Source: Candidatus Paceibacter sp.
GTDB taxonomy: Bacteria; Patescibacteriota; Minisyncoccia; UBA6257; 02-FULL-45-10c
Assembly: GCA_020724845.1 (NCBI GenBank)
Contig: DYGE01000004.1
Coordinates: forward strand, 29,751 to 93,750
Direction of reading: 5' to 3'
DNA: 64,000 nucleotides
Shown here: piece by piece, positions 6,779 to 57,854 of the stretch
How the letters are laid out: every line of letters begins with the position of its first letter
How positions within the stretch are numbered: position 1 is the stretch's first letter
The notes under the pieces: generated by a model
The model's database searches: none
Told to the model about the DNA's origin: nothing
Seen by the model: only the letters and a program-made list of their open reading frames with translations
Program-made: the position numbers and the translations under genes

Positions 6779-6805
6779 CAATTCTAATATAAAAACCCCC
6801 TAAAA

Positions 6806-8374
6806 TCAGGGAGTTTTTCCTTTTAAAATGATTTTTTGCAGCTCGTCTAAGCTGGGACTATCAGTAGAAAACGGATTTCCATCCTCGCCGAAATAGACAT
6901 TTATACTTCTGCCTCTGTGTCCTAAAACAGCATGGTCCCACTCTAGAAGCTCGAGCTTCTCTAAAAACCGTTTGTTCTTGCGAAGCAGCCTAATAAACCT
7001 GCCTCTGCTTTTAGCTCGTGTCCCCGGAGAAGTTGTAATAGCCCTTTTAATGTCCTCTTGGCTAACCAAGCGCCTAATAGTTCCCCTCTCTTCCAGCGCT
7101 GCATATAAGCTAATTCTGGGGTCGGCGCTGATGTTGTGGTAATCCCAGTCAATTCTCCAAGCCCGGTTATCTTCTAATCCGAATCCAAACTTTTTCATTC
7201 CCTTCTCCAAAAGATGCCGTTTGGTAACCCAATCCAGTTCGCCTACCAGCTTATCAAGCGCCTTGGCCTCCAGCAGCTCCAAAACCCTCTCCCATTCTTC
7301 CAGGCACCTCTTTTCTTCCGGAGACAAAGGGCGGAGCTGCTTGGCGGCATTAAGAAAGATGCGGTTGTAGCGAATAATGTTGGCCCGGGAAGTTCTGGTC
7401 CTCAAGCGATAATTCAAGTCAATGCCAAAGTTTAATTTGTGCAATTCTTTGACTGGATCTTCCAGTCTTAACGGAGCCGGCAAATTCCATCCTTCCTCTC
7501 CCAGCCGCAAAACAAGATGCGTTATAGTATCTACCAGCCAAGTCTGCAGCTCGCAACGAGTAGCGTCCCGAGACATCAAATGCAAGCGCCCAAGTGTTAA
7601 AGAGCTGTCGGCGCGATCTTCATTTTTGTAATCAATCAGAGGCCGCAGATTATCTCCGTCGGACATCTCTTTCACTAGAACATGCGGAGCCCGCTGGGAA
7701 AAATTAAAGACAAAACCGCCGTTTCTTTTTCTCGCCACATGCCCATTTCCGCTAAGAATCAAGGCTGCTGGAATAAAATTCCATAAAATATCGGAAATGC
7801 TCCTCTCCTTTGCAAGTAGATAGGAGTAATTATGGTGACATCCATAGGTAACTTCCCGCCTTAAATCAAGAACAGAATTCTGGGTATTCGTGAAGATATC
7901 CTCATCTTCGTCATCGCCGCGCCCTGGTCCCACGCTATTCTTATAAAGCTCGAATCTCCTCAATCCCCAAATCTTGGAAACTTGCTTAAGCGCTAAATTT
8001 AAAATTTGCTCCAAGGCCTTTTCCTGGGCAACGATATCAAGCGAACCAGCCAAACATTCCGCGGTATTGCTTTCTATTAACCTCCCTATATCAATGTAAA
8101 TCTTTGATCCATTGCCAAGCCACACCATCTCGGGCTTATCTTTGTTATTCAAGATCACAGAAGGAAATCGCTTGGAAATGGCGACAATAAGGCTTGAATA
8201 GATATCTCGATGCCATTCCCCAAACTGATCTCTATAATCCAGGTCAGGCACCGGGTCTATGAAAACCCCGAACTCCTGCTCCCTGCCGCACAAACGTTTC
8301 TGCACTTTTACCTCTTCAGCTATAAAAGAACATTGTAATAGTATAACAAAATACCCCGCTTTTATGCGAGGCAT
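6806..8374 (-). CDS. divergent PafA/Dop-family carboxylate-amine ligase paralog (Pup ligase-like)
   Basis: N-terminal CGREQEFG variant of the GIETEFG motif; LYKNN…GCHHNYS and LSQRA…RPLIDYKNED blocks align to Mtb PafA from memory; tandem with a close paralog. Confidence 0.7.
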   Translation of the reverse strand: MPRIKAGYFVILLQCSFIAEEVKVQKRLCGREQEFGVFIDPVPDLDYRDQFGEWHRDIYSSLIVAISKRFPSVILNNKDKPEMVWLGNGSKIYIDIGRLIESNTAECLAGSLDIVAQEKALEQILNLALKQVSKIWGLRRFELYKNSVGPGRGDDEDEDIFTNTQNSVLDLRREVTYGCHHNYSYLLAKERSISDILWNFIPAALILSGNGHVARKRNGGFVFNFSQRAPHVLVKEMSDGDNLRPLIDYKNEDRADSSLTLGRLHLMSRDATRCELQTWLVDTITHLVLRLGEEGWNLPAPLRLEDPVKELHKLNFGIDLNYRLRTRTSRANIIRYNRIFLNAAKQLRPLSPEEKRCLEEWERVLELLEAKALDKLVGELDWVTKRHLLEKGMKKFGFGLEDNRAWRIDWDYHNISADPRISLYAALEERGTIRRLVSQEDIKRAITTSPGTRAKSRGRFIRLLRKNKRFLEKLELLEWDHAVLGHRGRSINVYFGEDGNPFSTDSPSLDELQKIILKGKTP

Positions 8375-8379
8375 TATAT

Positions 8380-9906
8380 TTATAAACTTGAGATTCCCAA
8401 TTTTTTATACAATTCTTCTAGATCAGGATTTTCGGTTGAAAACGGATTGCCGCCTCCTCCGAATGGGATCACTAATGGCTTATCTGATTTTTCTAAGAGT
8501 TCTTTTCTAAGAATTACCTTTTGCCAGTCCATATCCGCCTTAGGAAAGGCGCTTCTTAATTTTTCTTCCTGCCGAAAGAGTTTCACGAACCTCCCTCGGC
8601 TCATGGCCCGGCTTTGAGGAGGCGTCAGAATGGTCTTCCTGATGTCCTCCTCGCTTACCAGGCGCCTGATAACGTCTTTCTGCTCCAGGGCGGCATAGAG
8701 GCTAATTCGAGGATCTGAGCTAATGTTGTGATAATCCCAATCCATCCTCCAGGCGCGTTTGTCTTCTAGCCCAAATCCAAATTTTTTCATCGCCTTTTCC
8801 AAAAGATGCCATTTGGTAACCCAATCCAGTTCGCCAACCAATTTCTCCAACGCGCCAGCCTCCAGCAGACTTAAGATTCTCTCCCACTCTTCCAAACACT
8901 TCTTCTCTCTGACGGAAAGCGGATTTAGCTGCTTCGCGGCATCAAGAAAGATGCGGTTATATCGGATTATGTTTAGACGGAAGCTCCCGGTATAGTCTCC
9001 GCAAAGGATCGAGTAATCAAGACCGGCCGCAAAAGAAAAGTTGACATTTCTCATTTCGCCGACCGGGTCCTGTATACTATAATTAGACGGTAGTTCCCAT
9101 CCCTCCTCCGCAAGGCGGAGGACCAGGTGAGTAACGCCATCCATCAACCAAGTCTGCAGCTCGCAACGGGTAGCGTCTCTGGAAATCAGATGCAGCCGAC
9201 TTAGTGATTCAAACCCGTCCATCAACGCCTCGTCTCTTGTATTAACTATCGGCCGATTGTTTGTGGAACTGTTATTCTCCCTGGCGACAATGTGATTAGC
9301 TCGCTGCGAAAGAAGGTAGAAAAAATTGCCGCCATACTTAAAAACATGCCCATTGCCGCTTAAAACCAAGCCGGCCGGAACAAAGCTCTCAAGAATCCGG
9401 AAGACCATACTTTGCTTGGAAGCCAAATAAGAATAATTATGGTGGCTGCCAAACGTGACTTCGTTAAAAAGATCCTTCGGACTAGCCGGCCCCACGTTAT
9501 TTTTATATAGATTCAAAGAATCTATTTTCCTAGACTCTACGGCAAGCAACAAGGCCTGGTTCAGCATCAACTCTGACGCCTTCTCTTGAAGAACTCCTTC
9601 TATAGAACATGGGCGAGACTCGGCATTAGCCGCTTCTAACAAGCTTTGGTCCTTATAAAATACGGCCCCATTCGCAGTCCAAAGACGCCCGTTTACGGAC
9701 CTAATGGCCGGAAAGTTATAGCTCAAGCACCGAAGAATTTCATCAATAATCCTGCCCCTCCAAATAGCATGATCGGCGGCTATCATCTGGTCCGGCGATT
9801 CCCCGGTTATGATTTGAGGTGAATAAATCTTTGGAGGCCGCCAACCAGGCTTAACTACCATGGCGAACTCCTGCTCCCTGCCGCAAAGCCGTTCTTGCAT
9901 TTCCAT
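8380..9906 (-). CDS. divergent PafA/Dop-family carboxylate-amine ligase paralog (Pup ligase-like)
   Basis: MQERLCGREQEFAM…, NGAVFYKD…, LYKNN…GSHHNYSYL, LSQRANH, RPIVNTRDE blocks; high similarity to the 6806..8374 product. Confidence 0.7.
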   Translation of the reverse strand: MEMQERLCGREQEFAMVVKPGWRPPKIYSPQIITGESPDQMIAADHAIWRGRIIDEILRCLSYNFPAIRSVNGRLWTANGAVFYKDQSLLEAANAESRPCSIEGVLQEKASELMLNQALLLAVESRKIDSLNLYKNNVGPASPKDLFNEVTFGSHHNYSYLASKQSMVFRILESFVPAGLVLSGNGHVFKYGGNFFYLLSQRANHIVARENNSSTNNRPIVNTRDEALMDGFESLSRLHLISRDATRCELQTWLMDGVTHLVLRLAEEGWELPSNYSIQDPVGEMRNVNFSFAAGLDYSILCGDYTGSFRLNIIRYNRIFLDAAKQLNPLSVREKKCLEEWERILSLLEAGALEKLVGELDWVTKWHLLEKAMKKFGFGLEDKRAWRMDWDYHNISSDPRISLYAALEQKDVIRRLVSEEDIRKTILTPPQSRAMSRGRFVKLFRQEEKLRSAFPKADMDWQKVILRKELLEKSDKPLVIPFGGGGNPFSTENPDLEELYKKLGISSL

Positions 9907-9960
9907 TATTCAAATGACAAACAAGCTAGTATCTACTATATGGTTATTCTTGGCAATTGG

Positions 9961-9990
9961 CAAATACAAAACCGCCTGAATGGCGGTTAT
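9961..9990 (-). terminator. intrinsic terminator / attenuator immediately after pup
   Basis: On the minus strand, hairpin AACCGCC-ATTCA-GGCGGTT followed by TTTTGTATTT. Confidence 0.5.
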
Positions 9991-10184
9991 TACTCACCCC
10001 CTTGCTGGGGAACGTCTTCGGGTTCCAGATCCTTTCCTACGCCGGCGTCGTTATAAAAATCTTCCAACACATCTTCAACGCCTTCAACATCTTGCTCTTC
10101 CTGCTCCTCTTCTTCCTGCTCTTCCTCTTCCTTCTTTTTCTTTTTATTCTTTTTCTTTTTCTTTACTTTATCCTGCTCGGACAT
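9990..10184 (-). CDS. pup: prokaryotic ubiquitin-like protein Pup (C-terminal GGE)
   Basis: 64 aa, highly charged and disordered; C-terminus …EDVPQQGGE; sits between the Dop-like and PafA-like genes as in canonical dop-pup synteny; poly-K/poly-E N-terminus. Confidence 0.7.
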   Translation of the reverse strand: MSEQDKVKKKKKNKKKKKEEEEQEEEEQEEQDVEGVEDVLEDFYNDAGVGKDLEPEDVPQQGGE

Positions 10185-10198
10185 CCAAACCTCAACTC

Positions 10199-11662
10199 TT
10201 AGCGATCTAATTCCGATAATATCATATCCGCCCCCAGTTTATCAAGCGACGGCTCATCAAAATCCAGATGTATCATTCTGTCGCCGCTTCTCATATAAGC
10301 AGAACCCCAATTCATATGCACGATTCCGGATCCAAATCTTTTGATAATTTCAGAACGCAGATAAGCCTTGGTGTCGTTCGGCGGATTAGATGTGGCCAAC
10401 TTGATAGAATCACTATCCAGCAGTTTGGCGCCTCTTACTTTTTCGGATAATTTCAAATGCGGATTGCGAGGATAAATCTCTCGAAAAGAACGGAGGTTCT
10501 TTTTAGCTTCGGCTGGACGGCTCTCCATTATTTTCCAGGCCGTTGCCCAGTCCAACCTGCCAAAGGCCAGAGCGGGATCCTTCTCTAAAATCTCTAATAA
10601 TTCTTCTGCTCGCTTTACGGCAAGCAAGTGCTGATCCGTCATCGGAGTGCCAGAAAGATAATCTCTGGCCTTCGATAAATAGTACCTAAGTATTTCCATG
10701 CCAGTCAGTTTTTTGCCATTTTCCATCCGAATCCGATCGCGGAATTTTAAATCGCGTGAAACCTTAATCATGGCTTCAACGGGCTTCCAAGGCATCATAT
10801 TCCTAGAAAGGAATTTATCCTCTATCATCGCTAGCACGACCTGGGTCAGGGCGACTTTCAAAAAAATAGCTTCTTCGCACAAAAGCGCGTCAGTGGAAAT
10901 ATCATGTAAGCGATAATATTTCCCAAAATCAGCATGGGGCTCGTCTCTAAGATTGAAAATAGGCCGTTCGCTGGTTGTGTTATATCCCACCAGATTTTCA
11001 AAAAAATCAGCCCTTTGAGAAATCTGAAAACGGCAGCTTGGCCGCTTGTTCTCCGATCCGAACTTGCCAGCCCCGATTAGAACCATCCTCGCAATCTGAA
11101 ATGGCATATAATGCCTGACGAGATAGGCGTGTCGGTCGTGTTCCACCGCGGCCCGATTAAGAAGCATGTTCAGGTGACAGCCATAACTATTACCCAACCC
11201 GTCGCTGTTATTCTTGTGCAAATAAAGAAGATATCCTTCCCGATCTTTTTGGCGGTAAAATAAATCCGCAGCGGCAAGCATAACTAGCTCGCTTGCCTTG
11301 TCATGGGCGACTAAATCCAGCGGCTTGAGGCATTCGGGAGTAGAATATTCCGGATGAGCGACATCCAGATAAAACCTGGCCCCATTATCCAAGAAGCCGT
11401 CGGCTGAATTGCCAGAGCGCTCAATAATGCCGCGATGCAGCTTCTCTATAAGAGTCTCTTCTTCATCATCGTCCGGCGGCCTTCTCGCCTCCCGGGACCT
11501 ATCGTAACGAGCGGCTTTCTGAAGGTTTAAGTAATCTCTTACAAAAGCATGAGAAAGCTCCGAATAAGCGCCTAAATCCACCGGATTCAATTCACTTCCA
11601 GATTTCCGAAGAATAGCAAAACCGAATTCGTTTTCTATTCCACAAACCTTAGGAACAGCCAT
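10199..11662 (-). CDS. dop: Dop/PafA-family enzyme, Dop-like (depupylase/deamidase candidate)
   Basis: VCGIENEFG, NGARFYLDVAHPEYSTPEC, HKNNSDGLGNSYGCHLN, IGAGKFG, ISQRADF, RPIFNLRDEPHAD match PafA/Dop; ~70-aa acidic insertion after the N-terminal motif resembles the Dop loop. Confidence 0.8.
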   Translation of the reverse strand: MAVPKVCGIENEFGFAILRKSGSELNPVDLGAYSELSHAFVRDYLNLQKAARYDRSREARRPPDDDEEETLIEKLHRGIIERSGNSADGFLDNGARFYLDVAHPEYSTPECLKPLDLVAHDKASELVMLAAADLFYRQKDREGYLLYLHKNNSDGLGNSYGCHLNMLLNRAAVEHDRHAYLVRHYMPFQIARMVLIGAGKFGSENKRPSCRFQISQRADFFENLVGYNTTSERPIFNLRDEPHADFGKYYRLHDISTDALLCEEAIFLKVALTQVVLAMIEDKFLSRNMMPWKPVEAMIKVSRDLKFRDRIRMENGKKLTGMEILRYYLSKARDYLSGTPMTDQHLLAVKRAEELLEILEKDPALAFGRLDWATAWKIMESRPAEAKKNLRSFREIYPRNPHLKLSEKVRGAKLLDSDSIKLATSNPPNDTKAYLRSEIIKRFGSGIVHMNWGSAYMRSGDRMIHLDFDEPSLDKLGADMILSELDR

Positions 11663-11753
11663 TTCATCTCCAAATAGCTGTCAAAGAGCAATTTAGTGTA
11701 TCTTAAAAGAATTAATCAATAATTACAAGAAAGCTTTAGAAGCCCAAAGCGGT

Positions 11754-11785
11754 GAATAAAAAATCTGCCGCTATGCGGCAGACTC
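11754..11785 (-). terminator. intrinsic terminator after the ARC/Mpa gene
   Basis: On the minus strand, hairpin TCTGCCGC-ATA-GCGGCAGA followed by TTTTTTATT. Confidence 0.6.
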
Positions 11786-11794
11786 AAACATAAT

Positions 11795-13642
11795 TTAATC
11801 CTCTTCTTTCGGCTTAAACCCGAGCGGCTTCTCCTTCACTTTTAGGAAACTATTCTTCAACCGTCGCATCTCCTCATCCACGGCCCGGAAAAAATCTTTC
11901 TTCATAACTTCTTCCTTCGCATTTGAAGGATTCTCTTCCCTTAAACGATTATACCTCTCCAACGCAATAAGCCTGGCGTTTTCTACAATACTGGCCAAAA
12001 TCGCTCCGGAGAGCCAATCCTTCAAATAGACATCCTCTTCGCCCTTTTGAGTAATGGCTCTAAACCTATTATCAACAATTGTGCTATCCGGCTCTCCATC
12101 CTCAAAATGCATTCTCACAGGAGAACCGGTATAAAGAATGCGATTAGTGATCATATCAATAATATGATTACGGACATTCTCTGGATCCTTCTTAAGCTCA
12201 ACTTTCTGTTCTTCTCCGCTGCCAAAATGGTCAATGTAAGTATAGGTATCTTGTTCAAAGTACTTGCTGGCAAATGGCATATCGGCAGTCAGATGAATCC
12301 TAAGGATTTCCTTGATATCCTTTTCAGACCGCGGCCTTGGGACTTCAACGTCAACACCTAGGCGCCCAGGGCGCAAGATCGCCTTGTCAATCAAATCTTT
12401 GCGGTTGGTAGCGCCAATAACTAGGACATTTCCGAGCGGATCCATCCCTTGCAGAATCGCGTTAAACTGCCCGATGTCAGTGCCCATCCAGGGCTCATGA
12501 GAAGCAGTGTCTCTGCTTCGCAGTAAAGAATCAATCTCATCAATAAAGACAATAACTAGCCACCCCTGACTGGCTAGCTCCTTAGCGCGAGCGAAAATCT
12601 CTCTCATCTTTCTGGCGGTTTCTCCAACAAACTTATCGGTCAAATCCGCTCCCGCAAACTGCATGAATCCGACTTTCAACCCCCTGGATTTGCCAACGTC
12701 AGCGGCAATAACCTGCGCAAGCAGAGTTTTGCCGCAACCTTCAGGACCGTGGAGAATAAGGCCCTTCGGCGGATTTTTGCCCTTGAATTTAGCGTATACC
12801 TCCGGAATCTTGAAAGGCAGTAAGCTTCGCTTAATCTTTTTAACCGCCCTGGAAAGTCCTCCGACATGAGACCAATCCTTGTCTCTGATCTCCTCAATGT
12901 CAAAAAATCTTTCCGCGCCCTCCACCTTCGGAAGAAGCTTTAGCAAAAGACCATTATAGTTAAGCAGATAATCGCCGTCCTTAAGCTTCTGGTCTTTGAG
13001 TTCCGGGCTGAGGAAGCACTGAAAGAGCGAGCCTCCTTCACCGCTGACCAAGGCCTCTTCGTCATTCAACTTTTCTTTGAAGCTGACCACCGAGCCTCGG
13101 AAATGGTGTTTTTTAGTAAGGCCAACTATATTTCCGGTTTCCGGATCTAAGAGCACCTCCCAACCGCACTTCAAATCTGCAGCAGATAACCCCGGCATGG
13201 CCAAATGCACTTTGCGCATTTCATCGTCAACCAGAATATCAACCTCATCAGCATCACCTCCAGGATGCGGCCGAATAAAAACTCCATACTTGCTGGCGGC
13301 GCCCTGCCTGCTCTTTTCCGCCTGCTCATGCTGTTTGGCAATCTTCGTTAATCGCTCCAAGGCCTTGGCGTACGCCTTATTCGCCCTATCCAGCTTCTGG
13401 CCGCGCTCCTCGCATTCCTTAATCCGCCTCCTAAGAGCTCGTATTATAATCTTGGAATTCTCTCTATCGGTCTCCAACTTTCTAAGCAAGTCCTCCAGGT
13501 CTTTATCGTCGCCATCTCCGGATTTCTTTCTCTTTTTACCGCTTAAAAATAACTCCAACAATTCGTCCAAGAAGTCTTTCGGGTCATTCTCTTGGTTCAT
13601 TTTCAATTTGCAAGGTTCAAGATTTTGAATAAAATATAGCAT
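11795..13642 (-). CDS. arc: ARC/Mpa-type AAA+ ATPase (proteasome-associated ATPase homolog)
   Basis: N-terminal coiled coil, OB-like interdomain (KYGVFIRP…), one AAA module (GPEGCGKTLLA…, VIVFIDEIDS); no C-terminal GQYL/HbYX; likely true start is MNQEN at 13600. Confidence 0.85.
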   Translation of the reverse strand: MLYFIQNLEPCKLKMNQENDPKDFLDELLELFLSGKKRKKSGDGDDKDLEDLLRKLETDRENSKIIIRALRRRIKECEERGQKLDRANKAYAKALERLTKIAKQHEQAEKSRQGAASKYGVFIRPHPGGDADEVDILVDDEMRKVHLAMPGLSAADLKCGWEVLLDPETGNIVGLTKKHHFRGSVVSFKEKLNDEEALVSGEGGSLFQCFLSPELKDQKLKDGDYLLNYNGLLLKLLPKVEGAERFFDIEEIRDKDWSHVGGLSRAVKKIKRSLLPFKIPEVYAKFKGKNPPKGLILHGPEGCGKTLLAQVIAADVGKSRGLKVGFMQFAGADLTDKFVGETARKMREIFARAKELASQGWLVIVFIDEIDSLLRSRDTASHEPWMGTDIGQFNAILQGMDPLGNVLVIGATNRKDLIDKAILRPGRLGVDVEVPRPRSEKDIKEILRIHLTADMPFASKYFEQDTYTYIDHFGSGEEQKVELKKDPENVRNHIIDMITNRILYTGSPVRMHFEDGEPDSTIVDNRFRAITQKGEEDVYLKDWLSGAILASIVENARLIALERYNRLREENPSNAKEEVMKKDFFRAVDEEMRRLKNSFLKVKEKPLGFKPKEED

Positions 13643-13685
13643 TTTCAGCTAAGTTATGACAAGGAGGCTTGGGTATCCTGGCCTC

Positions 13686-13716: not shown

Positions 13717-14271
13717 TTACATAGTGCCAGCGGAAAGACAAGTCAGGATGGCCTGCCACGCCGATCTTCCAGTCGGCCTTAAATCGCTCTTTCTGACTTT
13801 AGATAAATAGACTCCTCCAGGGAAGGCCTGAATGGGGCAATGGACGGAACACCAGACAACCCCGCGCTCATCCGGCCCGGATTCATTAGTGACAATCCCC
13901 AAAGTATAACGCCCGCTTCCGGGAACTATTTCAAACTCAACCTCATAGGCGCCCTGCGTCTTTATTCTTTCCAAGAAATCCATGAATTTGATCAAAGACC
14001 CGACTAGCGGCAGATTGCCAAGTAAGCTAGATATTAGATCCTTGAAGCTGGGTAGATTCAGAAGGAATCCGGTTCCATAGGATGCCAAAGCTACGCAAAG
14101 AATATTCAGAAAAAAATTCAGAGTCTGATTTTCGTAAAAATGCCAGCCGACGGTATGTACTATATTCCAAACGCCATGGCCCAGGTAAGCGGCCACTATA
14201 AAAAGCAGGATAAATAAAAAGCCGTTTCGGAGAATGACGTAATGCTTGCTAAGAAAGCTCTCTTTTTCCAC
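13717..14271 (-). CDS. hypothetical membrane protein
   Basis: Several predicted TM helices; no recognised motif. Confidence 0.4.
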   Translation of the reverse strand: MEKESFLSKHYVILRNGFLFILLFIVAAYLGHGVWNIVHTVGWHFYENQTLNFFLNILCVALASYGTGFLLNLPSFKDLISSLLGNLPLVGSLIKFMDFLERIKTQGAYEVEFEIVPGSGRYTLGIVTNESGPDERGVVWCSVHCPIQAFPGGVYLSKVRKSDLRPTGRSAWQAILTCLSAGTM

Positions 14272-28437: not shown

Positions 28438-28574
28438 CACCCTTAGTTGTTGGCACATCCTACTTTCTCGTCCGCCGAAGCAGATAATATCATCGGATTT
28501 AAACGCTTTCACTTCTCTGTTCGGAATGGGAAGAGGTGGGCCACGTTTAGATAAAGCACCAACAACTAAGGGTG
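28438..28574 (-). rRNA. rrf: 5S rRNA
   Basis: Reverse complement contains CCCATTCCGAACAGAGAAGTGAAA; extended terminal helix CACCCTTAGTTGTTGG/CCAACAACTAAGGGTG; ~25 nt downstream of the 23S 3' end. Confidence 0.7.
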
Positions 28575-28603
28575 TATTTTACAAAGGTAATCAAATAAAT
28601 ACT

Positions 28604-31792
<3,189 letters not shown>

Positions 31793-50233: not shown

Positions 50234-52375
50234 ATGGATTTAAATACAGAACTTTCAGCTATCCAAGGCGTCGGAGAGAAATTTTCCGCCAAACTTCAAA
50301 AACTTAACATTAGAACAGTCCGCGACCTTCTTTGGCATTTCCCTTTTCGTTACGAAGATTATTCAAGAGTCCTGCCAATCGGCGAACTGGAAGTAGGCCA
50401 AACAGCCACTGTCCAAGGGCGCATCCACCAGCTGAATACTCGCAGAACTTGGAAAAAGAATCTGCTTATAACCGAGGCAATAATCGTAGATGATACTGGC
50501 GGCATCAAAGCGGTCTGGTTTAACCAGCCATACATTAATAATGTACTAAGGGAGGGCGGACAATATAATTTTGCCGGGAAGGTAACTGGGTCAAAACGAG
50601 AAGTCTATTTGGCCAGCCCGTCCTATGAACCGCTAAATAAACTAGGCAGGGGAGAAACAAAGCACACCGCCGGCCTAATTCCTATCTATCCAGAAACCAG
50701 GGGATTGACATCCAAGGGCCTTAGATACTTAGTTAAGCCGATTTTAAAAAGCGTCGGCGCCATTGAGGACTTTATCCCGCAAGAAATATTGAGAGAGAAT
50801 AAGCTCCCCGACTTAAGCGTTGCTCTGCGGCGCATCCATTTTCCGCTGAAGCTGGAAGACGCGGAGATCGCTAAAAAACGATTTGCATTTGAGGATTTAT
50901 TCTTGCTACAGCTGAATAACCTGAAATTAAAATCGCAATTGTCGCAGAAACAAGCCATTCCGCTAAAAATAGAGGAGCAGGAATTAGCTAATCTTATTGA
51001 GCAGCTGCCTTTTAAGCTCACTTCCTCGCAAAAAGAAAGTTTAGGCGAAATTATTTCAGATCTTCAAAATCCGCATCCAATGAACCGGCTCCTTCAGGGA
51101 GACGTAGGGTCTGGAAAAACAGTGATTGCCGCGGTTGCCGCGATCGTGGCCGCAAAAAACGGCCACCAAGCAGTATTTATGGCTCCGACCGAAGTCTTAG
51201 CCGGCCAACACTACAGGACCATCACTAATATTTTTGATGACTTCCAGGAAGGGATAGCTCTGCTGACCGCTAACAAGGCCGAAGTTTTCTACGGTCGAAA
51301 CTTAGGCGCTAAGACCTCCAAAGCCAAACTATTAAAAGAAGCAGCTGATGGGAAAATAAAGATTATTATCGGAACCCACGCGGTCATCCAAAAAGGCGTC
51401 AGTTTTAACCGACTGGCCTTAGCAATCGTGGACGAACAGCATCGCTTTGGAGTAGCCCAAAGGGCAATGCTGGCAACGGGCGAGAAAAAGGCGGCGCCAG
51501 ACTCGGATTTGTTGCCTCATTTCTTATCAATGTCCGCCACGCCGATACCAAGAACTCTTTCCTTAACGGTTTTCGGCGATCTTGATCTATCCACCATAAC
51601 GGAATTGCCAGCCGGGCGAAAAGAAATCATCACCAAAGTCGTTGATCCAAAAAACCGCGCCAAGGCCTACGACTTCATTCGAGAGCAGATACAAAAGGGC
51701 AGGCAAGCTTTCGTTATCTGCCCAAGGATAGAGCCGGGCGCCGTCAAAGAGGGAGAAATATTAAGCGAGGCCAAAAAGAAAGCCCTGGAACTGAAATCGG
51801 TGAAGGAAGAATTTGAAAAACTATCCAAAAAAATCTTCCCGGATCTTAGAGTAGTCATGCTCCACGGCAAGATGAAGGGGAAAGAAAAAGATCAAATTAT
51901 GAAAGAATTTCAGGATCACAAACACGATATCTTGATCTCCACTTCCGTGATTGAAGTCGGAGTAGATGTGCCAAATGCCACTATTATGATGATTGAGGGA
52001 TCGGATCGATTTGGGCTTGCGCAACTGTATCAGTTTCGCGGACGAGTCGGCAGAGGCGAACACCAATCCTTCTGCTTACTATTCACCGACTCCGATTCCG
52101 CCAACGCGCAAAAAAGATTGAATTTTCTGGTAAAAGCAAAAAATGGTTTTGAGTTGGCGGAAAAAGACCTTCAGTTGAGGGGCCCAGGCCAGTTCCTGGG
52201 AGAAAGCCAGGCGGGATTGCCAGACGTAGCCATGGACGCCCTTAAAGATATCCAATTAGTAAAGGCGACCAGGGATGCCGCCAAAAAAATACTTTCTGAC
52301 GATCCGGAATTCAGTGCGTACCCTTTATTAAAAAAACGCTTTCAAGAATTTCAGAAAGAAATTCACTTGGAATAA
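50234..52375 (+). CDS. recG: ATP-dependent DNA helicase RecG
   Basis: Wedge-domain N-terminus; helicase motifs GDVGSGKT, DEQHRFG, TATPIPRT; C-terminal RecG tail. Confidence 0.9.
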   Translation: MDLNTELSAIQGVGEKFSAKLQKLNIRTVRDLLWHFPFRYEDYSRVLPIGELEVGQTATVQGRIHQLNTRRTWKKNLLITEAIIVDDTGGIKAVWFNQPYINNVLREGGQYNFAGKVTGSKREVYLASPSYEPLNKLGRGETKHTAGLIPIYPETRGLTSKGLRYLVKPILKSVGAIEDFIPQEILRENKLPDLSVALRRIHFPLKLEDAEIAKKRFAFEDLFLLQLNNLKLKSQLSQKQAIPLKIEEQELANLIEQLPFKLTSSQKESLGEIISDLQNPHPMNRLLQGDVGSGKTVIAAVAAIVAAKNGHQAVFMAPTEVLAGQHYRTITNIFDDFQEGIALLTANKAEVFYGRNLGAKTSKAKLLKEAADGKIKIIIGTHAVIQKGVSFNRLALAIVDEQHRFGVAQRAMLATGEKKAAPDSDLLPHFLSMSATPIPRTLSLTVFGDLDLSTITELPAGRKEIITKVVDPKNRAKAYDFIREQIQKGRQAFVICPRIEPGAVKEGEILSEAKKKALELKSVKEEFEKLSKKIFPDLRVVMLHGKMKGKEKDQIMKEFQDHKHDILISTSVIEVGVDVPNATIMMIEGSDRFGLAQLYQFRGRVGRGEHQSFCLLFTDSDSANAQKRLNFLVKAKNGFELAEKDLQLRGPGQFLGESQAGLPDVAMDALKDIQLVKATRDAAKKILSDDPEFSAYPLLKKRFQEFQKEIHLE

Positions 52376-52405
52376 CAAAGAGCCTCTTAGCGAGGCTCTT
52401 GCAAC

Positions 52406-52714
52406 TTAAACAGGAGGATCGAAGATGTCATATTTCGGCGGCACAATCAACTTCATAACAAGCCGCGGATCATCGGAACCCATCTCTTTGGCGATAGCGC
52501 CCAAAGACGCCTTCACCCTTGTCAACGGATTACCCGGCTCTGATTCGTTATAATAACGAAAGAATCTGACCGTTACTTCCGGGCCATAGACCACTCCATT
52601 ATCCGGAGTAAGATCTCGCGGCTTCAAATTACAGGCAACGCTTTCCACCCCCGGCAGCAAGGCCACTCTGGACATAACCAACTCTTGCAACGCCGCGAAC
52701 TTCTCTTCGGACAT
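52406..52714 (-). CDS. hypothetical protein
   Basis: 102 aa; no recognised motif. Confidence 0.35.
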   Translation of the reverse strand: MSEEKFAALQELVMSRVALLPGVESVACNLKPRDLTPDNGVVYGPEVTVRFFRYYNESEPGNPLTRVKASLGAIAKEMGSDDPRLVMKLIVPPKYDIFDPPV

Positions 52715-52783
52715 GCATCCTCCTTATAGGTGCGCTAGGAAATAATATAAAGCATTGCTTTAATATTGTCAAAAAAATTCCAG

Positions 52784-54253
52784 CTAACGCCCCTTAGGCG
52801 TTATCCAGAATCCCAACCTGAATTTCCCGCCAATCATCAATCGAGTCTGCGATTCCAGAGCCGGAAGAGAGCCGAACAATATCAAAGTTATCGGGAGTAA
52901 AGCCCACTGTACGATATATAATAAATAATGCCGCCACCTTAAGCCCTCCGGCTTTGGCGGAAGAAGCATAACGCTAAGGATGGCAGAGCTGGCAATGCCC
53001 ACGGTCGCGAAAAGCAGAATATATCTGGTAATTGTCGGCAGATTATACGACAAAACAGTTTGGCTGAAACCTTCCTTTCCTATCAACAACGGAAGCCAGC
53101 CAAGGGCAAAAATAAGAATGGAATTCGTGGCCCAAGAATGAAAACCCTCAATCGCGTTAAAGGACCAATAAATTTTGGATTTTAGGGGAATCAACTTATT
53201 TTTCAAAAAACCCTCTATCATATATGGAATATTTTCCACACCCCACCCCCAGCGCCGCTGCTGCTTATAAATATTGATCATGGTCCGCCAAAAAGTCGGA
53301 GCGACATTGGCGTCCATAGACACTGGATAAAACAGCGGCACCGCCCGCCAATCTCCGTTGTAATGAAGATAGCATTGCCAGAAAATCCTAGAATCTTCTG
53401 AAACAATATCTTTCTGCCAATAGCCTATTTCTACCAAGGCTCTGAAAGGCATGGCATGGGAAGAAAAGGTAGTCAGTCTTTCCGGCCTGGATTGCTGCAT
53501 CATCTGCCAAAAAGTAGCGGAAAAAGAGATAATTCTTGCTAGGGCTGGCGCCTGATAAATATTGTTCGTGAAAAGAGGGATCGGCTGATAGCTGGAGCGC
53601 TGCGGCTCGTCAGTGGTAAGAAAATGATAAGTCAGGCAACCAAAATACTCTTGATATATTTGAGTGTCAACATCAAAGACAGAGACGACAATTTTTTCAT
53701 AAGGGATGTGAAGCTTATCAATTATTTCTTCTTTGGCGCGCTTAGCGGCCCATGCTTCGTTTGACCCCTTGCCGGGAATCTCTCCGGACAGGCCATCCGG
53801 ATGCCTGGTTACAAGAAAGTTTGGGAATTCCAAGGAAAACTCCTTAGAGATTCTTTCCGCAACCTCCTTCGCGCCAGGCCCAGCCCTCTCTTCAGTGGCC
53901 AAGACTACCAACAATTTTTCCTTTGGGTAATTGGTATTTTTTAAACTTTCAAAGGTTTCCCTCACTACTTCGTATGGCTCGGTGGCCATAGGCAGAATTA
54001 TCAAATGATAAATTGATTGCCAGTCAGCTAAAATCTCTAGCCTTTCCCTCCATGGAACTTTGATGTTGTCTTTCATTTTCTTGAAAGCCACCCTTAAGTG
54101 CAACGAGAAATAGATTGATTTCAACAGCCAATAAATATCAAAAAGGATAATGAAAATAGCTATCCAAACCGGCCTTTGCCAGGACAAAAACACGACCAGA
54201 ATCAAGGTCGTCCAAGAAAGAAATCCTGGAATTATTTCTAAAGCGCGCTGCAT
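52784..54253 (-). CDS. processive family-2 glycosyltransferase (cellulose/chitin-synthase-like), membrane-integrated
   Basis: GT2 D…DxD region and QQRRW motif; N- and C-terminal TM helices. Confidence 0.75.
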   Translation of the reverse strand: MQRALEIIPGFLSWTTLILVVFLSWQRPVWIAIFIILFDIYWLLKSIYFSLHLRVAFKKMKDNIKVPWRERLEILADWQSIYHLIILPMATEPYEVVRETFESLKNTNYPKEKLLVVLATEERAGPGAKEVAERISKEFSLEFPNFLVTRHPDGLSGEIPGKGSNEAWAAKRAKEEIIDKLHIPYEKIVVSVFDVDTQIYQEYFGCLTYHFLTTDEPQRSSYQPIPLFTNNIYQAPALARIISFSATFWQMMQQSRPERLTTFSSHAMPFRALVEIGYWQKDIVSEDSRIFWQCYLHYNGDWRAVPLFYPVSMDANVAPTFWRTMINIYKQQRRWGWGVENIPYMIEGFLKNKLIPLKSKIYWSFNAIEGFHSWATNSILIFALGWLPLLIGKEGFSQTVLSYNLPTITRYILLFATVGIASSAILSVMLLPPKPEGLRWRHYLLYIVQWALLPITLILFGSLPALESQTRLMIGGKFRLGFWITPKGR

Positions 54254-54328
54254 TGCTTAAGTAATATTGTAATTCAAAAGCTACCCGCAGGGTAGCTTTC
54301 AGGTCATTTGCTAAATTTAATATCTACA

Positions 54329-54727
54329 TTAAAACAGAAACGCGAACTGTCCACCTCCCATTGTGGCCAAAATGAGCCCGGAGACGAAAAGCAGCAGATC
54401 CAGTTCATAATCTCCTAGTAATTTCTGGCCATTGATTTTCTTCCAGCAGATAATCACGAACATTTCGGCCGAAAGCAGCAAGCCGGCGATTTGCGTGCCA
54501 AATCCCAGAAGAAAAAGCAGGGCGCCAATAGTTTCAAAAAAGGCGGCATAAGATCCCCAAAACCAGCCAGGACGAAATCCCATATTATTAAAGCTCTCCG
54601 CATTGGCGCTCAAATTTCTCAATTTTGGCCAACCATGGACCCATAAGATTGCCGCCACGACAAGCCGTAAAGCAAGCAAGGCCCAATTTTGGAAAGCAAG
54701 AAGTGGTAAAATCATATGTTCAATCAT
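54329..54727 (-). CDS. DoxX-family membrane protein
   Basis: 4-TM, DoxX-like N-terminal pattern. Confidence 0.55.
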   Translation of the reverse strand: MIEHMILPLLAFQNWALLALRLVVAAILWVHGWPKLRNLSANAESFNNMGFRPGWFWGSYAAFFETIGALLFLLGFGTQIAGLLLSAEMFVIICWKKINGQKLLGDYELDLLLFVSGLILATMGGGQFAFLF

Positions 54728-54785
54728 AACATATTTTAATCGTAATCTGAAAGGATTGAAAAATTGTTATCTGTGATATAATATA

Positions 54786-54860
54786 TAAATCGATTGCTCT
54801 CATCGTCTAGCCTGGTCTAGGACGCCTCCCTTTCACGGAGGAAACTCGGGTTCAAATCCC
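54786..54860 (+). tRNA. tRNA-Glu (anticodon TTC)
   Basis: Manual cloverleaf: acceptor GCTCTCA/TGAGAGC, anticodon loop CTTTCAC, T-loop TTCAAAT. Confidence 0.85.
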
Positions 54861-55005
54861 GATGAGAGCACCGAATGGGAACTGGAACTAAAAACATACT
54901 TAGCGTAGAAACTTCCTGCGATCCCGCACTAAAAAGAGCATTGCTCAACGGCCTAACCGGCCTAGAGATAAATAATGCTCTTTTAGTGACGGAACAAGTG
55001 AAACT

Positions 55006-56139
55006 GTGATTATGAAAATCTTGGCAATAGAAACGTCTTGTGATGAAACATCGATAGCGATCGTAAAATCCAGCGGCACGTTAAGGGCGCCGAAATTTGA
55101 AGTGCTGGAAAATGTTGTTTCTTCGCAGATTGCCATACATCGGCCTTTCGGGGGCGTGGTGCCGAATCTTGCCAAAAGAGAACACATCAAAAATTTGCCA
55201 AAAATTTTAAAAGGAATAATGAATAATGAATTAAGAATTAAGCGTAAGGGCAAAAAATCCATAATTCATAATTCTAAATTCATAATTCCAAAAATAGATT
55301 ATATCGCTGTGACAGTAGGCCCCGGGCTGGAACCGGCGCTTTGGACTGGAATTAATTTTGCAGAAGAGCTGGCGGAAAAATGGAAAAAGCCGCTTTTGGG
55401 CGCTAATCATATGGAAGGACATCTCTACTCGAATTGGCTTCCGCAGCGTTCAGCGTTCAGCGTTCAGCGTAAAGGGGAAAATACAAAAACCCTAAACGCT
55501 AACCGCTATACGCTAAACCCTAAAATATCGTTTCCCGCCATTGCCCTGATCGTCAGTGGAGGACATACAATACTGCTTCATATGACTGCGGTCAATAAAT
55601 GGACGAAACTCGGCGAAACAGTTGATGATGCGGCTGGCGAAGCGTTTGATAAAGTCGCGCGCATGCTTGACTTGCCTTATCCCGGAGGCCCGGAGATTCA
55701 GAAGCTTGCCGCCAAAGGCGATCCTAACACCATCAAATTCCCCCGCCCGATGCTTAATAAAAAGAATTTCGATTTTAGTTTTTCCGGACTAAAAACCTCT
55801 GTTCTTTACTATTTGCGCGACAATCCTAAAGCAAATAAAGCGGATGTGGCCGCGAGTTTCCAGCAGGCAGTAATTGACGTACTTGTCAAAAAAACTATCC
55901 GCGCAGCGGAAGAATTTGGAGCAAAAACAGTTTTGCTTTGCGGAGGCGTGTCCGCGAATAAACCACTACAGAGCACATTGCGACAATTAGCCAACGATAA
56001 AAACCTGAAATTTAACGTTCCGGAATTCCAATTCAATACCGACAACGCCGCCATGATTGCCGCCGCGGCATATATCAATTTGCTGCAAAAAAACGAAAAA
56101 CCGCTCCCAATAGAAGCGGATTCGAATTTGAATCTTTAA
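55006..56139 (+). CDS. tsaD: tRNA N6-adenosine threonylcarbamoyltransferase TsaD (Kae1/YgjD) with ~35-aa low-complexity insertion
   Basis: MKILAIETSCDETSIAIV…, HMEGH metal motif, GPG…, LCGGVSAN; insertion encoded by (CAGCGTT) repeats and a CGCTAA-rich segment. Confidence 0.9.
   Translation: MIMKILAIETSCDETSIAIVKSSGTLRAPKFEVLENVVSSQIAIHRPFGGVVPNLAKREHIKNLPKILKGIMNNELRIKRKGKKSIIHNSKFIIPKIDYIAVTVGPGLEPALWTGINFAEELAEKWKKPLLGANHMEGHLYSNWLPQRSAFSVQRKGENTKTLNANRYTLNPKISFPAIALIVSGGHTILLHMTAVNKWTKLGETVDDAAGEAFDKVARMLDLPYPGGPEIQKLAAKGDPNTIKFPRPMLNKKNFDFSFSGLKTSVLYYLRDNPKANKADVAASFQQAVIDVLVKKTIRAAEEFGAKTVLLCGGVSANKPLQSTLRQLANDKNLKFNVPEFQFNTDNAAMIAAAAYINLLQKNEKPLPIEADSNLNL
55444..55470. repeat. heptanucleotide tandem repeat (CAGCGTT)x~3.9 inside tsaD
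   Basis: Direct read; in-frame insertion encoding QRSAFSVQR. Confidence 0.9.
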
Positions 56140-56152
56140 ACTCCAACAATAA

Positions 56153-56752
56153 TTACATGCGGCGCGGGGATTTTATCTTGCCAGCTATTTCCATAGCTGC
56201 AAGGGCCTCCTCCCCCACCAACTCGGCAGTCAAATCCTTTCCCGATTCTAATGCCTTAGTTAAAAGATTATCCAAGCAGACTAAGAAAATATCCGATTTT
56301 ATAGCTGACATCCTTTTTGCGTATTCAACCGGCTCGTGAGTTAATAGAGAACCGCCCGCGGCTTTAACCAGCTCCTTTTCGTGTTCTAAAGATTTAAAAT
56401 CTCCATGAAGCAGCTCGGAATAATACTCTGCCCTCTTTTTATATTTATCGGCGTTATAGAGATACCTATCGATTCTAAACCCAAACTCTTCGGAGCCTTC
56501 CGGCAAGCGGCCTTTTGGCCACCCCGTTTCGGCCAAATCAATTCCATGTTCAGCGGCTAATTTTTGAGCTCTTTCTCTGTACTGCAGAGAAAGATCATAA
56601 AAGCTTTTAACGCTATCAGCAATTTCCTTAGCGGTTTCCGGATCGCCAACAAGCTCGGCGGTCAGAATAGCGTCAAGCCTTTCATTAAGCTCGATAATTT
56701 CTTTTGACTGACCGACTTGGGTATTCTGAAATTTTTCTTCTTTCATAATCAA
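56153..56752 (-). CDS. hypothetical protein
   Basis: 199 aa; no recognised motif. Confidence 0.4.
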   Translation of the reverse strand: MIMKEEKFQNTQVGQSKEIIELNERLDAILTAELVGDPETAKEIADSVKSFYDLSLQYRERAQKLAAEHGIDLAETGWPKGRLPEGSEEFGFRIDRYLYNADKYKKRAEYYSELLHGDFKSLEHEKELVKAAGGSLLTHEPVEYAKRMSAIKSDIFLVCLDNLLTKALESGKDLTAELVGEEALAAMEIAGKIKSPRRM

Positions 56753-56758
56753 TTATTA

Positions 56759-57697
56759 TTAGCTCAATTCTCTATTTTTACTTTCATAGACACCGGCTTT
56801 GATTTCTTCTATCCTGTCCTCTGGGATTTTATATTCATCAATTTGATGCCTGTATACTGCATTAAAGACCTCTTTTAAATTTTCCACATCCTCGTCCTCT
56901 TCTGACCCTTCAGTGACCCGGTCAATAGTAAACCGGCATTTAGCAAATTTCTGGGCCAATTTCTCAAGCGCCTCTTCGCGCTTTTCCGGACTGTCCAGCT
57001 TGGCGGTCAAATATTCTATATCGGACAAATCATCAATCCTGTCTAGTTCTTCAGCTAAAACAATAGCTCGCTTTCTGCCTTCCGGCACCCCTTCCGCGGC
57101 GCGCAGCTGGCGGACAAACTTTACTAAATCCATATCCCGGTCTTCGCTCTCGTCCCTTTTTTCTGTCATAACTAGCGCAAACTTTGAAAAATCCGCGCCA
57201 ATTTTCTCATCTAGGAGTCGAAGATCTTCCAGAGTGGCGTCGGTATCTTCCATTGTGTCGTGCAGCAACACAGTTGCGTGGACATCTAAATCTTCAATGC
57301 CAAGCGACTTCGCTTTCTTGTAAAGCTCCAGAGAATGTGTAGCTAACAGGCTTCCATCCTTGCGAAGGGGAGCCTTCCTGAAGGCTTCCAGCGCAAATAA
57401 TAAAACGCCCCTCAGCTTTTCTTGTCCAGGAGCAACTTCAAACATGGCCTCCAACTCGCTCACCATCTCCGCAGACGGCTCTTTGCCTGCCTGGACGGAT
57501 TCATAAAAATCTTTGCAAAAATCATTGAGCTTCTTTTTCCTTTCAGCCCGATCTTTTAATAGCGCCTTGGCCGAAGAAGGCATTTTCTCATTACGAGTCA
57601 AAAGGCCGCGGGCTTTTTCAATGCCCTTTTCAAGCTTTTCTCCGAAAGATTCTGGTTTTCTTTCTGGTCCTCTTGGCATAAATTTACGCAAATTCAC
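56759..57697 (-). CDS. HD-domain phosphohydrolase (RelA/SpoT-hydrolase-like)
   Basis: …HATVLLHDTMEDTDATLEDL… resembles the SpoT/Mesh1 HD motif; long N-terminal extension. Confidence 0.5.
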   Translation of the reverse strand: MNLRKFMPRGPERKPESFGEKLEKGIEKARGLLTRNEKMPSSAKALLKDRAERKKKLNDFCKDFYESVQAGKEPSAEMVSELEAMFEVAPGQEKLRGVLLFALEAFRKAPLRKDGSLLATHSLELYKKAKSLGIEDLDVHATVLLHDTMEDTDATLEDLRLLDEKIGADFSKFALVMTEKRDESEDRDMDLVKFVRQLRAAEGVPEGRKRAIVLAEELDRIDDLSDIEYLTAKLDSPEKREEALEKLAQKFAKCRFTIDRVTEGSEEDEDVENLKEVFNAVYRHQIDEYKIPEDRIEEIKAGVYESKNRELS

Positions 57698-57854
57698 CTA
57701 CTCATTATTACTATAAGCGCGCTAATAACACCTTGTCAATTTTAAGAAATGATAAGCCGCCCTCAATGGAAATGAATTCCAATTTGGACATATAAGCATT
57801 TTCAATTACTGTTATTTATTGTTAAAGGGCTAAAAATCTAATAAGATTAGAATT

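Follow-up and report, generated by a model that had tools for sequence, protein, structure and literature searches.

A probable proteasome-independent pupylation system with a strongly diverged Pup-like tag in a Harrisonbacteria-type lineage of the candidate phyla radiation

Introduction

Pupylation is usually described as the actinobacterial route to the proteasome. Here we analyse a 64,000-nucleotide stretch of the genome of Candidatus Paceibacter sp. (contig DYGE01000004.1 of assembly GCA_020724845.1; this whole stretch is hereafter "the window"), in which five adjacent genes encode an ARC/Mpa-type AAA+ ATPase, a Dop-like enzyme, a 64-residue Pup-like protein and two further members of the PafA/Dop family in tandem, which we call X1 and X2. 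We consider it likely that this locus encodes a working, proteasome-independent pupylation and unfolding system resembling that of Corynebacterium, and that it has been conserved by vertical descent in a Harrisonbacteria-type lineage of the candidate phyla radiation (CPR).

The closest described systems are those of corynebacteria, which have no 20S genes but retain arc, dop, pup and pafA, with pup directly before pafA. Their ARC has no docking motif, as is expected of species without a proteasome, and their enzymes are more divergent than those of proteasome-bearing lineages (PMC3511204). The preliminary description of the window, made from its letters alone, had cited this precedent correctly. 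Sporadic Pup systems outside Actinobacteria, some of them unlinked to proteasome genes, have been known since 2008 (PMC2588565). The UBact/Pup systems of Nitrospirae, Verrucomicrobia, Planctomycetes and others are likewise sporadic and non-actinobacterial, with divergent tags ending in G[EQ]. Most UBact-type loci are said to keep prcBA, and the 2017 UBact paper reportedly listed some candidate phyla.

In the CPR, entries named "Pup-protein ligase" (Azambacteria, Woesebacteria) have stood in public databases since the GW2011 genomes. A literature search for pupylation together with CPR, Patescibacteria or Parcubacteria returned, within the library searched, no paper describing pupylation in the CPR. 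The locus had initially been presented as an unusual phyletic occurrence should the host be CPR-like or otherwise non-actinobacterial; the CPR host holds, but the surprise is smaller given these public entries.

Results

The locus and its described counterparts

The locus occupies positions 6806-13642 of the window and consists of five co-directional open reading frames (ORFs) on the minus strand:

11795..13600 (ORF to 13642), minus strand: ARC/Mpa-type AAA+ unfoldase, 601 aa from its likely start
10199..11662, minus strand: Dop orthologue; PF03136 339 bits, TIGR03688 scoring above TIGR03686
9990..10184, minus strand: Pup-like tag of 64 aa ending QQGGE; position, size and C-terminus kept in 15 loci
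8380..9900 (ORF to 9906), minus strand: X1, divergent PafA/Dop-family enzyme, presumed Pup ligase; PF03136 217 bits
6806..8305 (ORF to 8374), minus strand: X2, paralogue in tandem with X1, presumed to be a second ligase or the partner of one; PF03136 208 bits

The full ORFs measure 615, 487, 64, 508 and 522 aa, and the intergenic gaps from the AAA gene to X2 are 132, 14, 83 and 5-74 nt. Direct reading of the ORFs recovered the five minus-strand frames as first listed, and their positions together with the Pfam and NCBIfam assignments confirm the canonical mpa-dop-pup order.

Like its corynebacterial counterparts, the locus shows the arc-dop-pup-ligase order without prcBA, pup next before a ligase gene, an ARC without docking motif, a tag that in the window ends GGE, and divergent enzymes. 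It differs from them by its CPR host, by a tandem-duplicated presumed ligase belonging to a separate CPR clade, by a tag that misses the Pfam Pup model and ends S/P/A-G-[EQ] in most relatives, and by the (I/L)GF tail of its ARC. With the mycobacterial Pup-proteasome system it shares the domain order and fold of Mpa, a Dop with its Dop-loop, and the Mg ligands and catalytic Asp. Unlike that system, it has no 20S genes (in the window and related loci), no GQYL and no PafBC, and it has two ligase-like genes, not one.

Loci of Azambacteria and Woesebacteria (e.g. KKS74917.1) also lie in CPR genomes and also carry ARC, a Dop-like gene, Pup and two more Pup_ligase paralogues. The Azambacteria locus (GCA_000998845.1) reads ARC, Dop-like gene, paralogue, textbook Pup (...LIDEIDDVLEENAEEFVQNYVQRGGE) and another paralogue, with no 20S gene within 10 kb. 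Its parts are canonical: the ARC (4404-6296 in L024/L025) scores 589 bits on TIGR03689 and ends STGHYL, and the Pup scores 64 bits on PF05639, whereas the window parts lie below the cutoffs. Its three paralogues fall in three clades, one of them placed before pup, whereas the window pair X1/X2 follows the tag. The preliminary description had counted three ligase-family paralogues as going beyond the usual two; there are indeed three, but Azambacteria has three as well. Because Azambacteria also shows three ligase-family genes by ARC and Pup, this combination is a recurring CPR layout, of which the Harrisonbacteria version is the most derived form. A 520-aa Azambacteria neighbour considered as a fourth paralogue is a GT2 glycosyltransferase.

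The Azambacteria locus lies between TsaD/ProDH and GT2-RecG, in the flank order PrsW-LeuRS-TsaD-ProDH, Pup locus, GT2-RecG, whereas the window locus lies at the rpoBC/ParB site. Thus, the system occupies different chromosomal sites in two CPR lineages. The window itself carries, at 50234-60727, a RecG-GT2-DoxX-tRNA-Glu-TsaD-...-LeuRS-PrsW segment corresponding to the genes on either side of the Pup locus in Azambacteria, and there are no Pup genes there. The STGHYL end of the Azambacteria ARC is near to GQYL though no 20S gene was found within 10 kb; the proteasome of Azambacteria may lie elsewhere in the genome or may have been lost recently.

Conservation in Harrisonbacteria-type genomes

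The nearest homologues named at NCBI come from Candidatus Harrisonbacteria (Patescibacteria/Parcubacteria group, CPR) and show identical synteny, which establishes the CPR host that had been suspected from gene content. The same locus is found at the same site in seven complete (fully gene-called) loci from different samples, in the order rpoB-rpoC-S6-SSB-(S18)-PAP2 / AAA-Dop-small ORF-X-X / ParB-RelA/SpoT-TopA-DprA, and eight further partial contigs contain the small ORF. The five ORFs, their order and their site are kept across relatives that are only 41-59% identical, which therefore requires purifying selection.

Some 54 proteins with 38-52% identity make up a tight group of X1 and X2 homologues, beyond which identity falls to about 30% for ordinary Dop and PafA. 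In an alignment-based contig scan, the motifs of this X clade matched two of about 186,000 GTDB species representatives, both Harrisonbacteria; a single-protein scan of the genome contigs gave no match. An exhaustive hidden Markov model (HMM) search found about 19 X-clade representatives at 50% identity among 767 PafA/Dop-family members (E<1e-30).

The Dop-like gene

The Dop protein matches PF03136 (Pup_ligase) at 339 bits (cutoff 25). Its best model is TIGR03688 (Dop), with 303 bits over a full-length alignment against 244 bits for TIGR03686 (PafA). Among PDB sequences, A. cellulolyticus Dop aligns over the full length, including the Dop-loop region, at 258 bits, and PafA scores 143 bits. The closest relatives outside the CPR are Dop proteins of Actinomycetota (37-41% identity), and the protein groups with Dop sequences in a neighbour-joining (NJ) tree.

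Single residues were compared in the numbering of A. cellulolyticus Dop, with the residue list taken from PMC8599861. The Mg ligands E8, E10, Y92, E99, H155 and H241, the catalytic D94 and the Dop-type alpha-loop (SQRADFFE) are kept in all seven Dop homologues. The spacer between GxExE and NG..Y.D counts 81 residues in the window protein; the corresponding lengths are 71 for Dop and 40 for PafA. A Dop-loop motif, [AI]R[YHF][DN]xSxE, is conserved and aligns to ARWD[FY]EEE of Dop; it reads ARYD in the window, and the aromatic position of W47 is Y, H or F, not W, in the seven homologues. The "Dop-like acidic loop" initially noticed is thus a Dop-loop with a conserved motif, but its acidic run is confined to the window genome.

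By its sequence the gene is a clear Dop orthologue, which would act as a depupylase and, where the tag of relatives ends in Gln, as a deamidase too. E156, which belongs to the GCHENY motif and is 98% conserved in the family, is Leu in all seven Harrisonbacteria-type Dop proteins. We rejected the idea that substitution of E156 co-varies with Ser in place of Gly at the third residue from the end of the tag (GGE to SGE): the window (GGE) and L012 (GGQ) share the enzyme substitutions.

The Pup-like tag

As first described, the small ORF encodes a disordered protein of 64 aa with a C-terminal QQGGE; it has a Lys-rich N-terminus, an acidic middle and a VEDVLED helix motif. A scan for acidic ORFs of 45-100 aa ending in G[EQ] found exactly one per locus. 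The small ORF is kept in 15 distinct related loci, where the Harrisonbacteria-type tags measure 60-72 aa and all end in G[EQ]. They have in common a [DE][DE]IGDIL[DN]D-like helix motif and a C-terminal [FY]RQ[KR]xG[EQ], with Q[KRQ]xG[EQ] describing the C-terminus across the 15 loci. Tail forms extend from the QKGGQ of M. tuberculosis to QKSGE, QKPGQ and QKAGE, and are mostly S/P/A-G-[EQ], not G-G-[EQ]; the tag of one relative ends YRQKGGQ, to be compared with YVQKGGQ of M. tuberculosis. Besides the window tag, seven of the other 14 tags end in Gln and seven in Glu. Since Gln-ending tags need a deamidase, Dop appears functionally coupled to the tag. The position is also constant: the tag ORF follows dop by 12-22 nt across loci (14 nt in the window, where X1 comes 83 nt later).

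Pup has been defined as a disordered protein of 50-90 residues with a C-terminal G-[EQ] (PMC2588565), and the window tag has all these properties. When profiles of the tag family were run against 177,635 PDB sequences, Pup came out as the top 3-4 matches, flush to the last residue, at E-values of only 0.13-1.3. Alignment of the family with canonical Pups by hhalign gave an E-value of 1.1e-4 and a probability of 57% over 30 columns, again flush to the C-terminus. In Pup, the last 30 or so residues form the bihelical region that binds PafA, Dop and Mpa. We read the 64-aa protein as a strongly diverged Pup, which is a functional call.

The N-terminal half of CPR Pup-like tags is very Lys-rich (e.g. 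KKKKKNKKKKK), unlike M. tuberculosis Pup. These lysines could give rise to tag chains, to self-modification or to easier pore engagement.

X1 and X2 form a separate clade of the PafA/Dop family

X1 and X2 match PF03136 at 217 and 208 bits (Pfam cutoff 25) and are 51% identical to each other. On TIGR03686 (PafA) and TIGR03688 (Dop), X1 scores 162 and 172 bits, and X2 157 and 144 bits. The AlphaFold2 (AF2) model of X1 has a predicted local distance difference test score (pLDDT) of 91.3. Its top 11 fold matches are Dop and PafA (template modelling (TM) scores 0.68-0.78, E 1e-29 to 1e-22), both resembled equally with TM scores of 0.76-0.78. The next matches, the GCS2 enzyme YbdK and its relatives, come at 1e-7, after a gap of 20 orders of magnitude in E-value. 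All three ligase-family proteins lie within the PafA/Dop clade and not with generic GCS2 ligases; a grouping with the latter was what the preliminary description had named as refuting it.

In an unrooted NJ tree with 100 bootstraps, the X clade is recovered in 100/100 replicates, apart from PafA, and is sister to a CPR clade that holds the Azambacteria/Woesebacteria "Pup-protein ligase" proteins, among them the post-pup paralogue of the Azambacteria locus (88/100). Its mean tree distance is 1.83 to PafA and 1.87 to Dop. The X1 and X2 of the window are sisters (90/100), as are those of L019 (100/100), and monophyly of all X1 or of all X2 was never obtained (0/100). This pattern would fit lineage-specific duplication or gene conversion.

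The six Mg ligands and D94 are kept in X1, X2 and Dop; the sole exception in 19 sequences is the X2 of L020, with E10 changed to Q. At position 156, His or Gln is found in all 12 X1/X2 sequences. The sister CPR clade has other substitutions instead, H241 to Q and D246 to E. The X1 model has no Dop-loop, residues 38-64 forming an ordered helix, and the PafA-type SQRAxH motif reads SQRANH in X1 and SQRAPH in X2 (SQRAEH in PafA). In the alpha-loop region the model showed a strand and a loop without the PafA-type helix, and we did not use this criterion. Only four columns discriminate PafA from Dop; they lean weakly to PafA for the X proteins and to Dop for the Dop-like gene. HMM scores, PDB sequence scores, fold TM scores and discriminating columns are none of them decisive between ligase and depupylase. 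We infer that X1 and X2 are Pup ligases by elimination, from a gene position that repeats the pup-pafA adjacency of corynebacteria, from the absence of a Dop-loop and from SQRAxH.

An ARC with an altered tail

The ARC protein matches the Pfam AAA family at 106 bits, and among the NCBIfam models TIGR03689 ("proteasome ATPase") ranks first with 263 bits. Mpa from the PDB matches it in one stretch, residues 42-457; PF16450 matches weakly, and PF17758 is found on several homologues. In the AF2 model (pLDDT 82.7), a 67-residue helix (32-98) is followed by beta domains at 104-161 and 170-237 (OB-like), the AAA module, a beta insert in the lid (452-525) and a disordered tail. This is the layout of Mpa/ARC, with its coiled-coil helix, double OB, single AAA module and beta-grasp insert. 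When the model was searched against the PDB with Foldseek, M. tuberculosis Mpa accounted for each of the top 30 matches (about 30% identity, E 3e-36 to 2e-29), and Rpt subunits came next. The Walker A (GPEGCGKT), Walker B (DEID), pore loop (KFVG) and Arg finger (RPGR) motifs read as intact in the sequence.

As first reported, the C-terminus lacks GQYL: it reads ...KPLGFKPKEED, and a control actinobacterial Mpa ends NTGQYL. All 24 Harrisonbacteria-type ARCs have instead an invariant G-F, usually (I/L)GF, 1-11 residues from the C-terminus. In the window ARC it is G594/F595, in the C-terminus encoded at 11795-11830, on a disordered tail predicted with low confidence. It resembles the ClpP-docking IGF tripeptide of ClpX, and one homologue reads IGFGA, as does the IGF loop of E. 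coli ClpX.

Search for 20S proteasome genes

The absence of 20S genes from the 64-kb window, claimed initially, was confirmed: PF00227 has no match in the 30 window ORFs of suitable size. The related loci, read to +/-10 kb, gave the same result, so that the negative covers the window and these loci; their precomputed Pfam tables list no Proteasome gene, and the count is zero for the window and 27 CPR loci together. Thus no prcAB was found beside homologous loci, and a control actinobacterial locus showed Pup and two Proteasome genes at the expected place. When the control PrcA and PrcB served as jackhmmer queries against all ORFs of the window and 28 loci (423 kb), they matched only themselves. 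This search has low sensitivity, control PrcA and PrcB missing each other, so it is the Pfam results that bear the point. In every Harrisonbacteria-type locus, pup is directly followed by the ligase genes.

Gene starts and expression signals

Consensus scans gave the following sites, which are pattern matches only; the hairpins behind X1 and X2 come with a T run as well:

13633..13662, minus strand: promoter-like site 5' of the ARC gene, 10/12 consensus plus extended TG; consensus match only
11761..11785, minus strand: terminator-like hairpin directly 3' of the ARC stop, 11-bp stem with 6 GC pairs, then a T run
9970..9988, minus strand: terminator-like hairpin directly 3' of the tag stop, 7-bp stem with 5 GC pairs, then a T run
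8350..8375, minus strand: terminator-like hairpin between X1 and X2, 10-bp stem
6796..6812, minus strand: terminator-like hairpin at the end of X2 and of the locus, from the consensus scan

The hairpin 3' of the tag gene might set expression of the tag above that of the ligases. Beyond the end of X2 lies a tRNA-Leu on the opposite strand. The true starts are likely at 13600 (ARC) and 9900 (X1, MQERLCGREQEF), as the family consensus suggests, and X2 most likely begins at the GTG at 8305 (MQKRLCGREQEF), a placement supported by both the family consensus and the hairpin at 8350-8375.

In the relative L001, the public Joint Genome Institute (JGI) call of X1 (10001-11482) starts at an internal Met, giving 493 aa, and drops the conserved MQxRLCGREQEF segment that holds two Mg-binding glutamates; the longer X1 ORF is almost certainly the correct one. 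An exact-protein lookup found no match for the 508-aa X1 ORF nor for one 563-aa window protein, because gene callers chose other starts. A 184-aa ORF at 13717-14271 was rejected as a sixth component: it is hydrophobic, has no Pfam match and is missing from four of the seven loci.

Other features of the window

A second protein-tagging cassette may lie at 36047-38446 on the minus strand, flanked by 35522-35998 and 38481-39812. It holds a ThiF-family E1-like protein (36480-37160; PF00899 6e-16, and TIGR03736 PRTRC ThiF 33 bits, below cutoff) and a Prok-JAB protein (37160-38446; PF14464 9e-7, and TIGR03735 PRTRC protein A 46 bits, below cutoff). A ThiS/ubiquitin-like partner could be encoded by an ORF of 83 aa at 36109-36360, whose product ends in ...SGRKG; the two neighbours of the cassette gave no Pfam or NCBIfam match.

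At 28448-31792 (minus strand) the window carries a 23S rRNA gene (3178 nt against a 2925-nt model, probably through insertions) and a 5S gene, with no adjacent 16S; the gene next to this block encodes a mechanosensitive-channel protein. In CPR bacteria, rRNA genes are typically unlinked and carry insertions.

Discussion

Proteasome-less pupylation, an ARC without docking motif and annotated CPR homologues were already known, and the locus studied here is a derived variant of a known system. Its distinctive points are the diverged tag, the duplicated CPR-specific ligase-like clade and the replacement of GQYL by (I/L)GF in ARC.

We propose the following roles for its products. The C-terminal Glu side chain of the diverged Pup would be phosphorylated with ATP, and X1 and/or X2, as PafA-type gamma-glutamyl-amine ligases of a CPR-specific subfamily, would join the tag to target lysines. 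The Dop orthologue would take the tag off, and would deamidate it where the tag of sister genomes ends in Gln. The ARC hexamer would bind the tag through its N-terminal coiled coils, then thread and unfold or disassemble the tagged protein. With no 20S partner, the outcome could be remodelling or inactivation, which has been proposed for ferritin in Corynebacterium, or a hand-over to some other peptidase. Which paralogue ligates, what the targets are and what becomes of them can only be inferred here.

Several observations weigh against this proposal. The tag gave no match to PF05639 (gathering threshold 27 bits) even at E<=10, nor did those of six relatives, so the Pup model check suggested by the preliminary description came out negative; the controls scored 63.7 bits (Azambacteria Pup) and 67.7 bits (actinobacterial Pup). 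The enzymes also stay under the equivalog cutoffs: the Dop protein under the 492 bits of TIGR03688, X1 and X2 under those of both TIGR03686 (551 bits) and TIGR03688, and ARC under the 505 bits of TIGR03689. Residues are altered as well. Besides E156 to L, the Dop protein has changes at three near-invariant C-domain positions (W, K, YH). X1 and X2 have lost H97, R180 and H231 and have E156 changed to H, all residues 90-99% conserved family-wide; their R90 is variable. In both sequence and fold, X1 and X2 stand as far from PafA as from Dop, so that their presumed ligase role draws on elimination and two short motifs. Of the initial "two tandem PafA-like paralogues" the family membership stands but the closeness to PafA does not. 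Finally, in L003 (GCA_016192685.1, a 608-kb contig, 10001-12749), X1 breaks off after some 364 residues and a frameshift near 12456-12460 splits X2, with ARC, Dop and tag intact. This disruption could be an assembly error or ligase pseudogenisation.

The most probable of the other explanations concerns X1 and X2. They may not both be Pup-protein ligases: one could be a pseudo-enzyme or the regulatory partner of a heteromer, or could do something different, for instance act as a second depupylase, transfer Pup or ligate to a non-protein amine. The closeness to Dop, equal to that to PafA, and the loss or variability of R90, R180 and H231 in the nucleotide pocket would suit such a role. The pair is present in every locus, yet it does not resolve into two orthologous groups, and the closest X1-X2 pairs, those of the window and L019, suggest repeated duplication or gene conversion of a matched pair. 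From general considerations, Iyer et al. suggested that Pup ligases may be heterodimeric (PMC2588565). We nevertheless regard this explanation as unlikely: a dead subunit is hard to reconcile with the full set of Mg ligands and the catalytic Asp that both paralogues retain in nearly every genome, PafA acts as a single enzyme where it has been characterised (PMC3511204), and no feature of the sequences points to a different substrate.

A more specific version of the hand-over step concerns the ARC tail. The tripeptide (I/L)GF is that by which ClpX/ClpC-type unfoldases dock on ClpP. The GQYL tail could have been exchanged for a ClpP-docking-like (I/L)GF, such that ARC, with ClpP or another non-20S peptidase, would degrade Pup-tagged proteins, X1 and X2 providing two substrate specificities. 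We offer this as a speculation and rate it as quite unlikely.

An ordinary Pup-proteasome system, with prcB/prcA elsewhere in the genome and ARC feeding a 20S core as in mycobacteria, would escape a reading of the 64-kb window and of +/-10 kb around related loci. The STGHYL end of the Azambacteria ARC also indicates that a 20S partner may still exist, or may have existed until recently, in some CPR systems. In Harrisonbacteria-type genomes we find this very unlikely, as GQYL is replaced by another invariant motif in 24 of 24 ARCs. Moreover, prcBA directly follows pup in proteasome-bearing lineages (our control; PMC2588565), whereas here the ligase genes do, and the 423 kb of window and loci contain no PF00227 and no jackhmmer match.

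That the locus is a decaying, non-working relic of a horizontally acquired actinobacterial system, to which the very divergent sequences, the missed equivalog thresholds and Pup model, the X genes disrupted in one metagenome-assembled genome (GCA_016192685.1) and the Actinomycetota affinity of Dop could be assigned, is highly improbable in view of the purifying selection required to keep five intact ORFs in order and place, the invariant catalytic residues, the G[EQ] invariant in 15 tags, and genomes of about 0.6 Mb that shed dispensable genes.

A working pupylation system without a 20S partner, which we thus favour, has several implications. CPR genomes of about 0.6 Mb would spend about 7 kb on a tag, a ligase, a de-tagging enzyme and an unfoldase with no proteasome nearby. 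The locus is kept beside core information-processing genes across deep divergence, which suggests that proteasome-independent pupylation is important in its own right. The family also provides natural variants: tag ends of the S/P/A-G-E/Q type, ligase-like enzymes without H97, E156 and R180, and an ARC whose tail is IGF-like. They are relevant to what distinguishes a ligase from a depupylase, and to the role of ARC without a 20S core. If true, the ARC-ClpP pairing would be a new combination of tag, unfoldase and protease. Finally, PF05639 and TIGR03686/88/89 miss the Harrisonbacteria branch, so surveys based on these models undercount pupylation.

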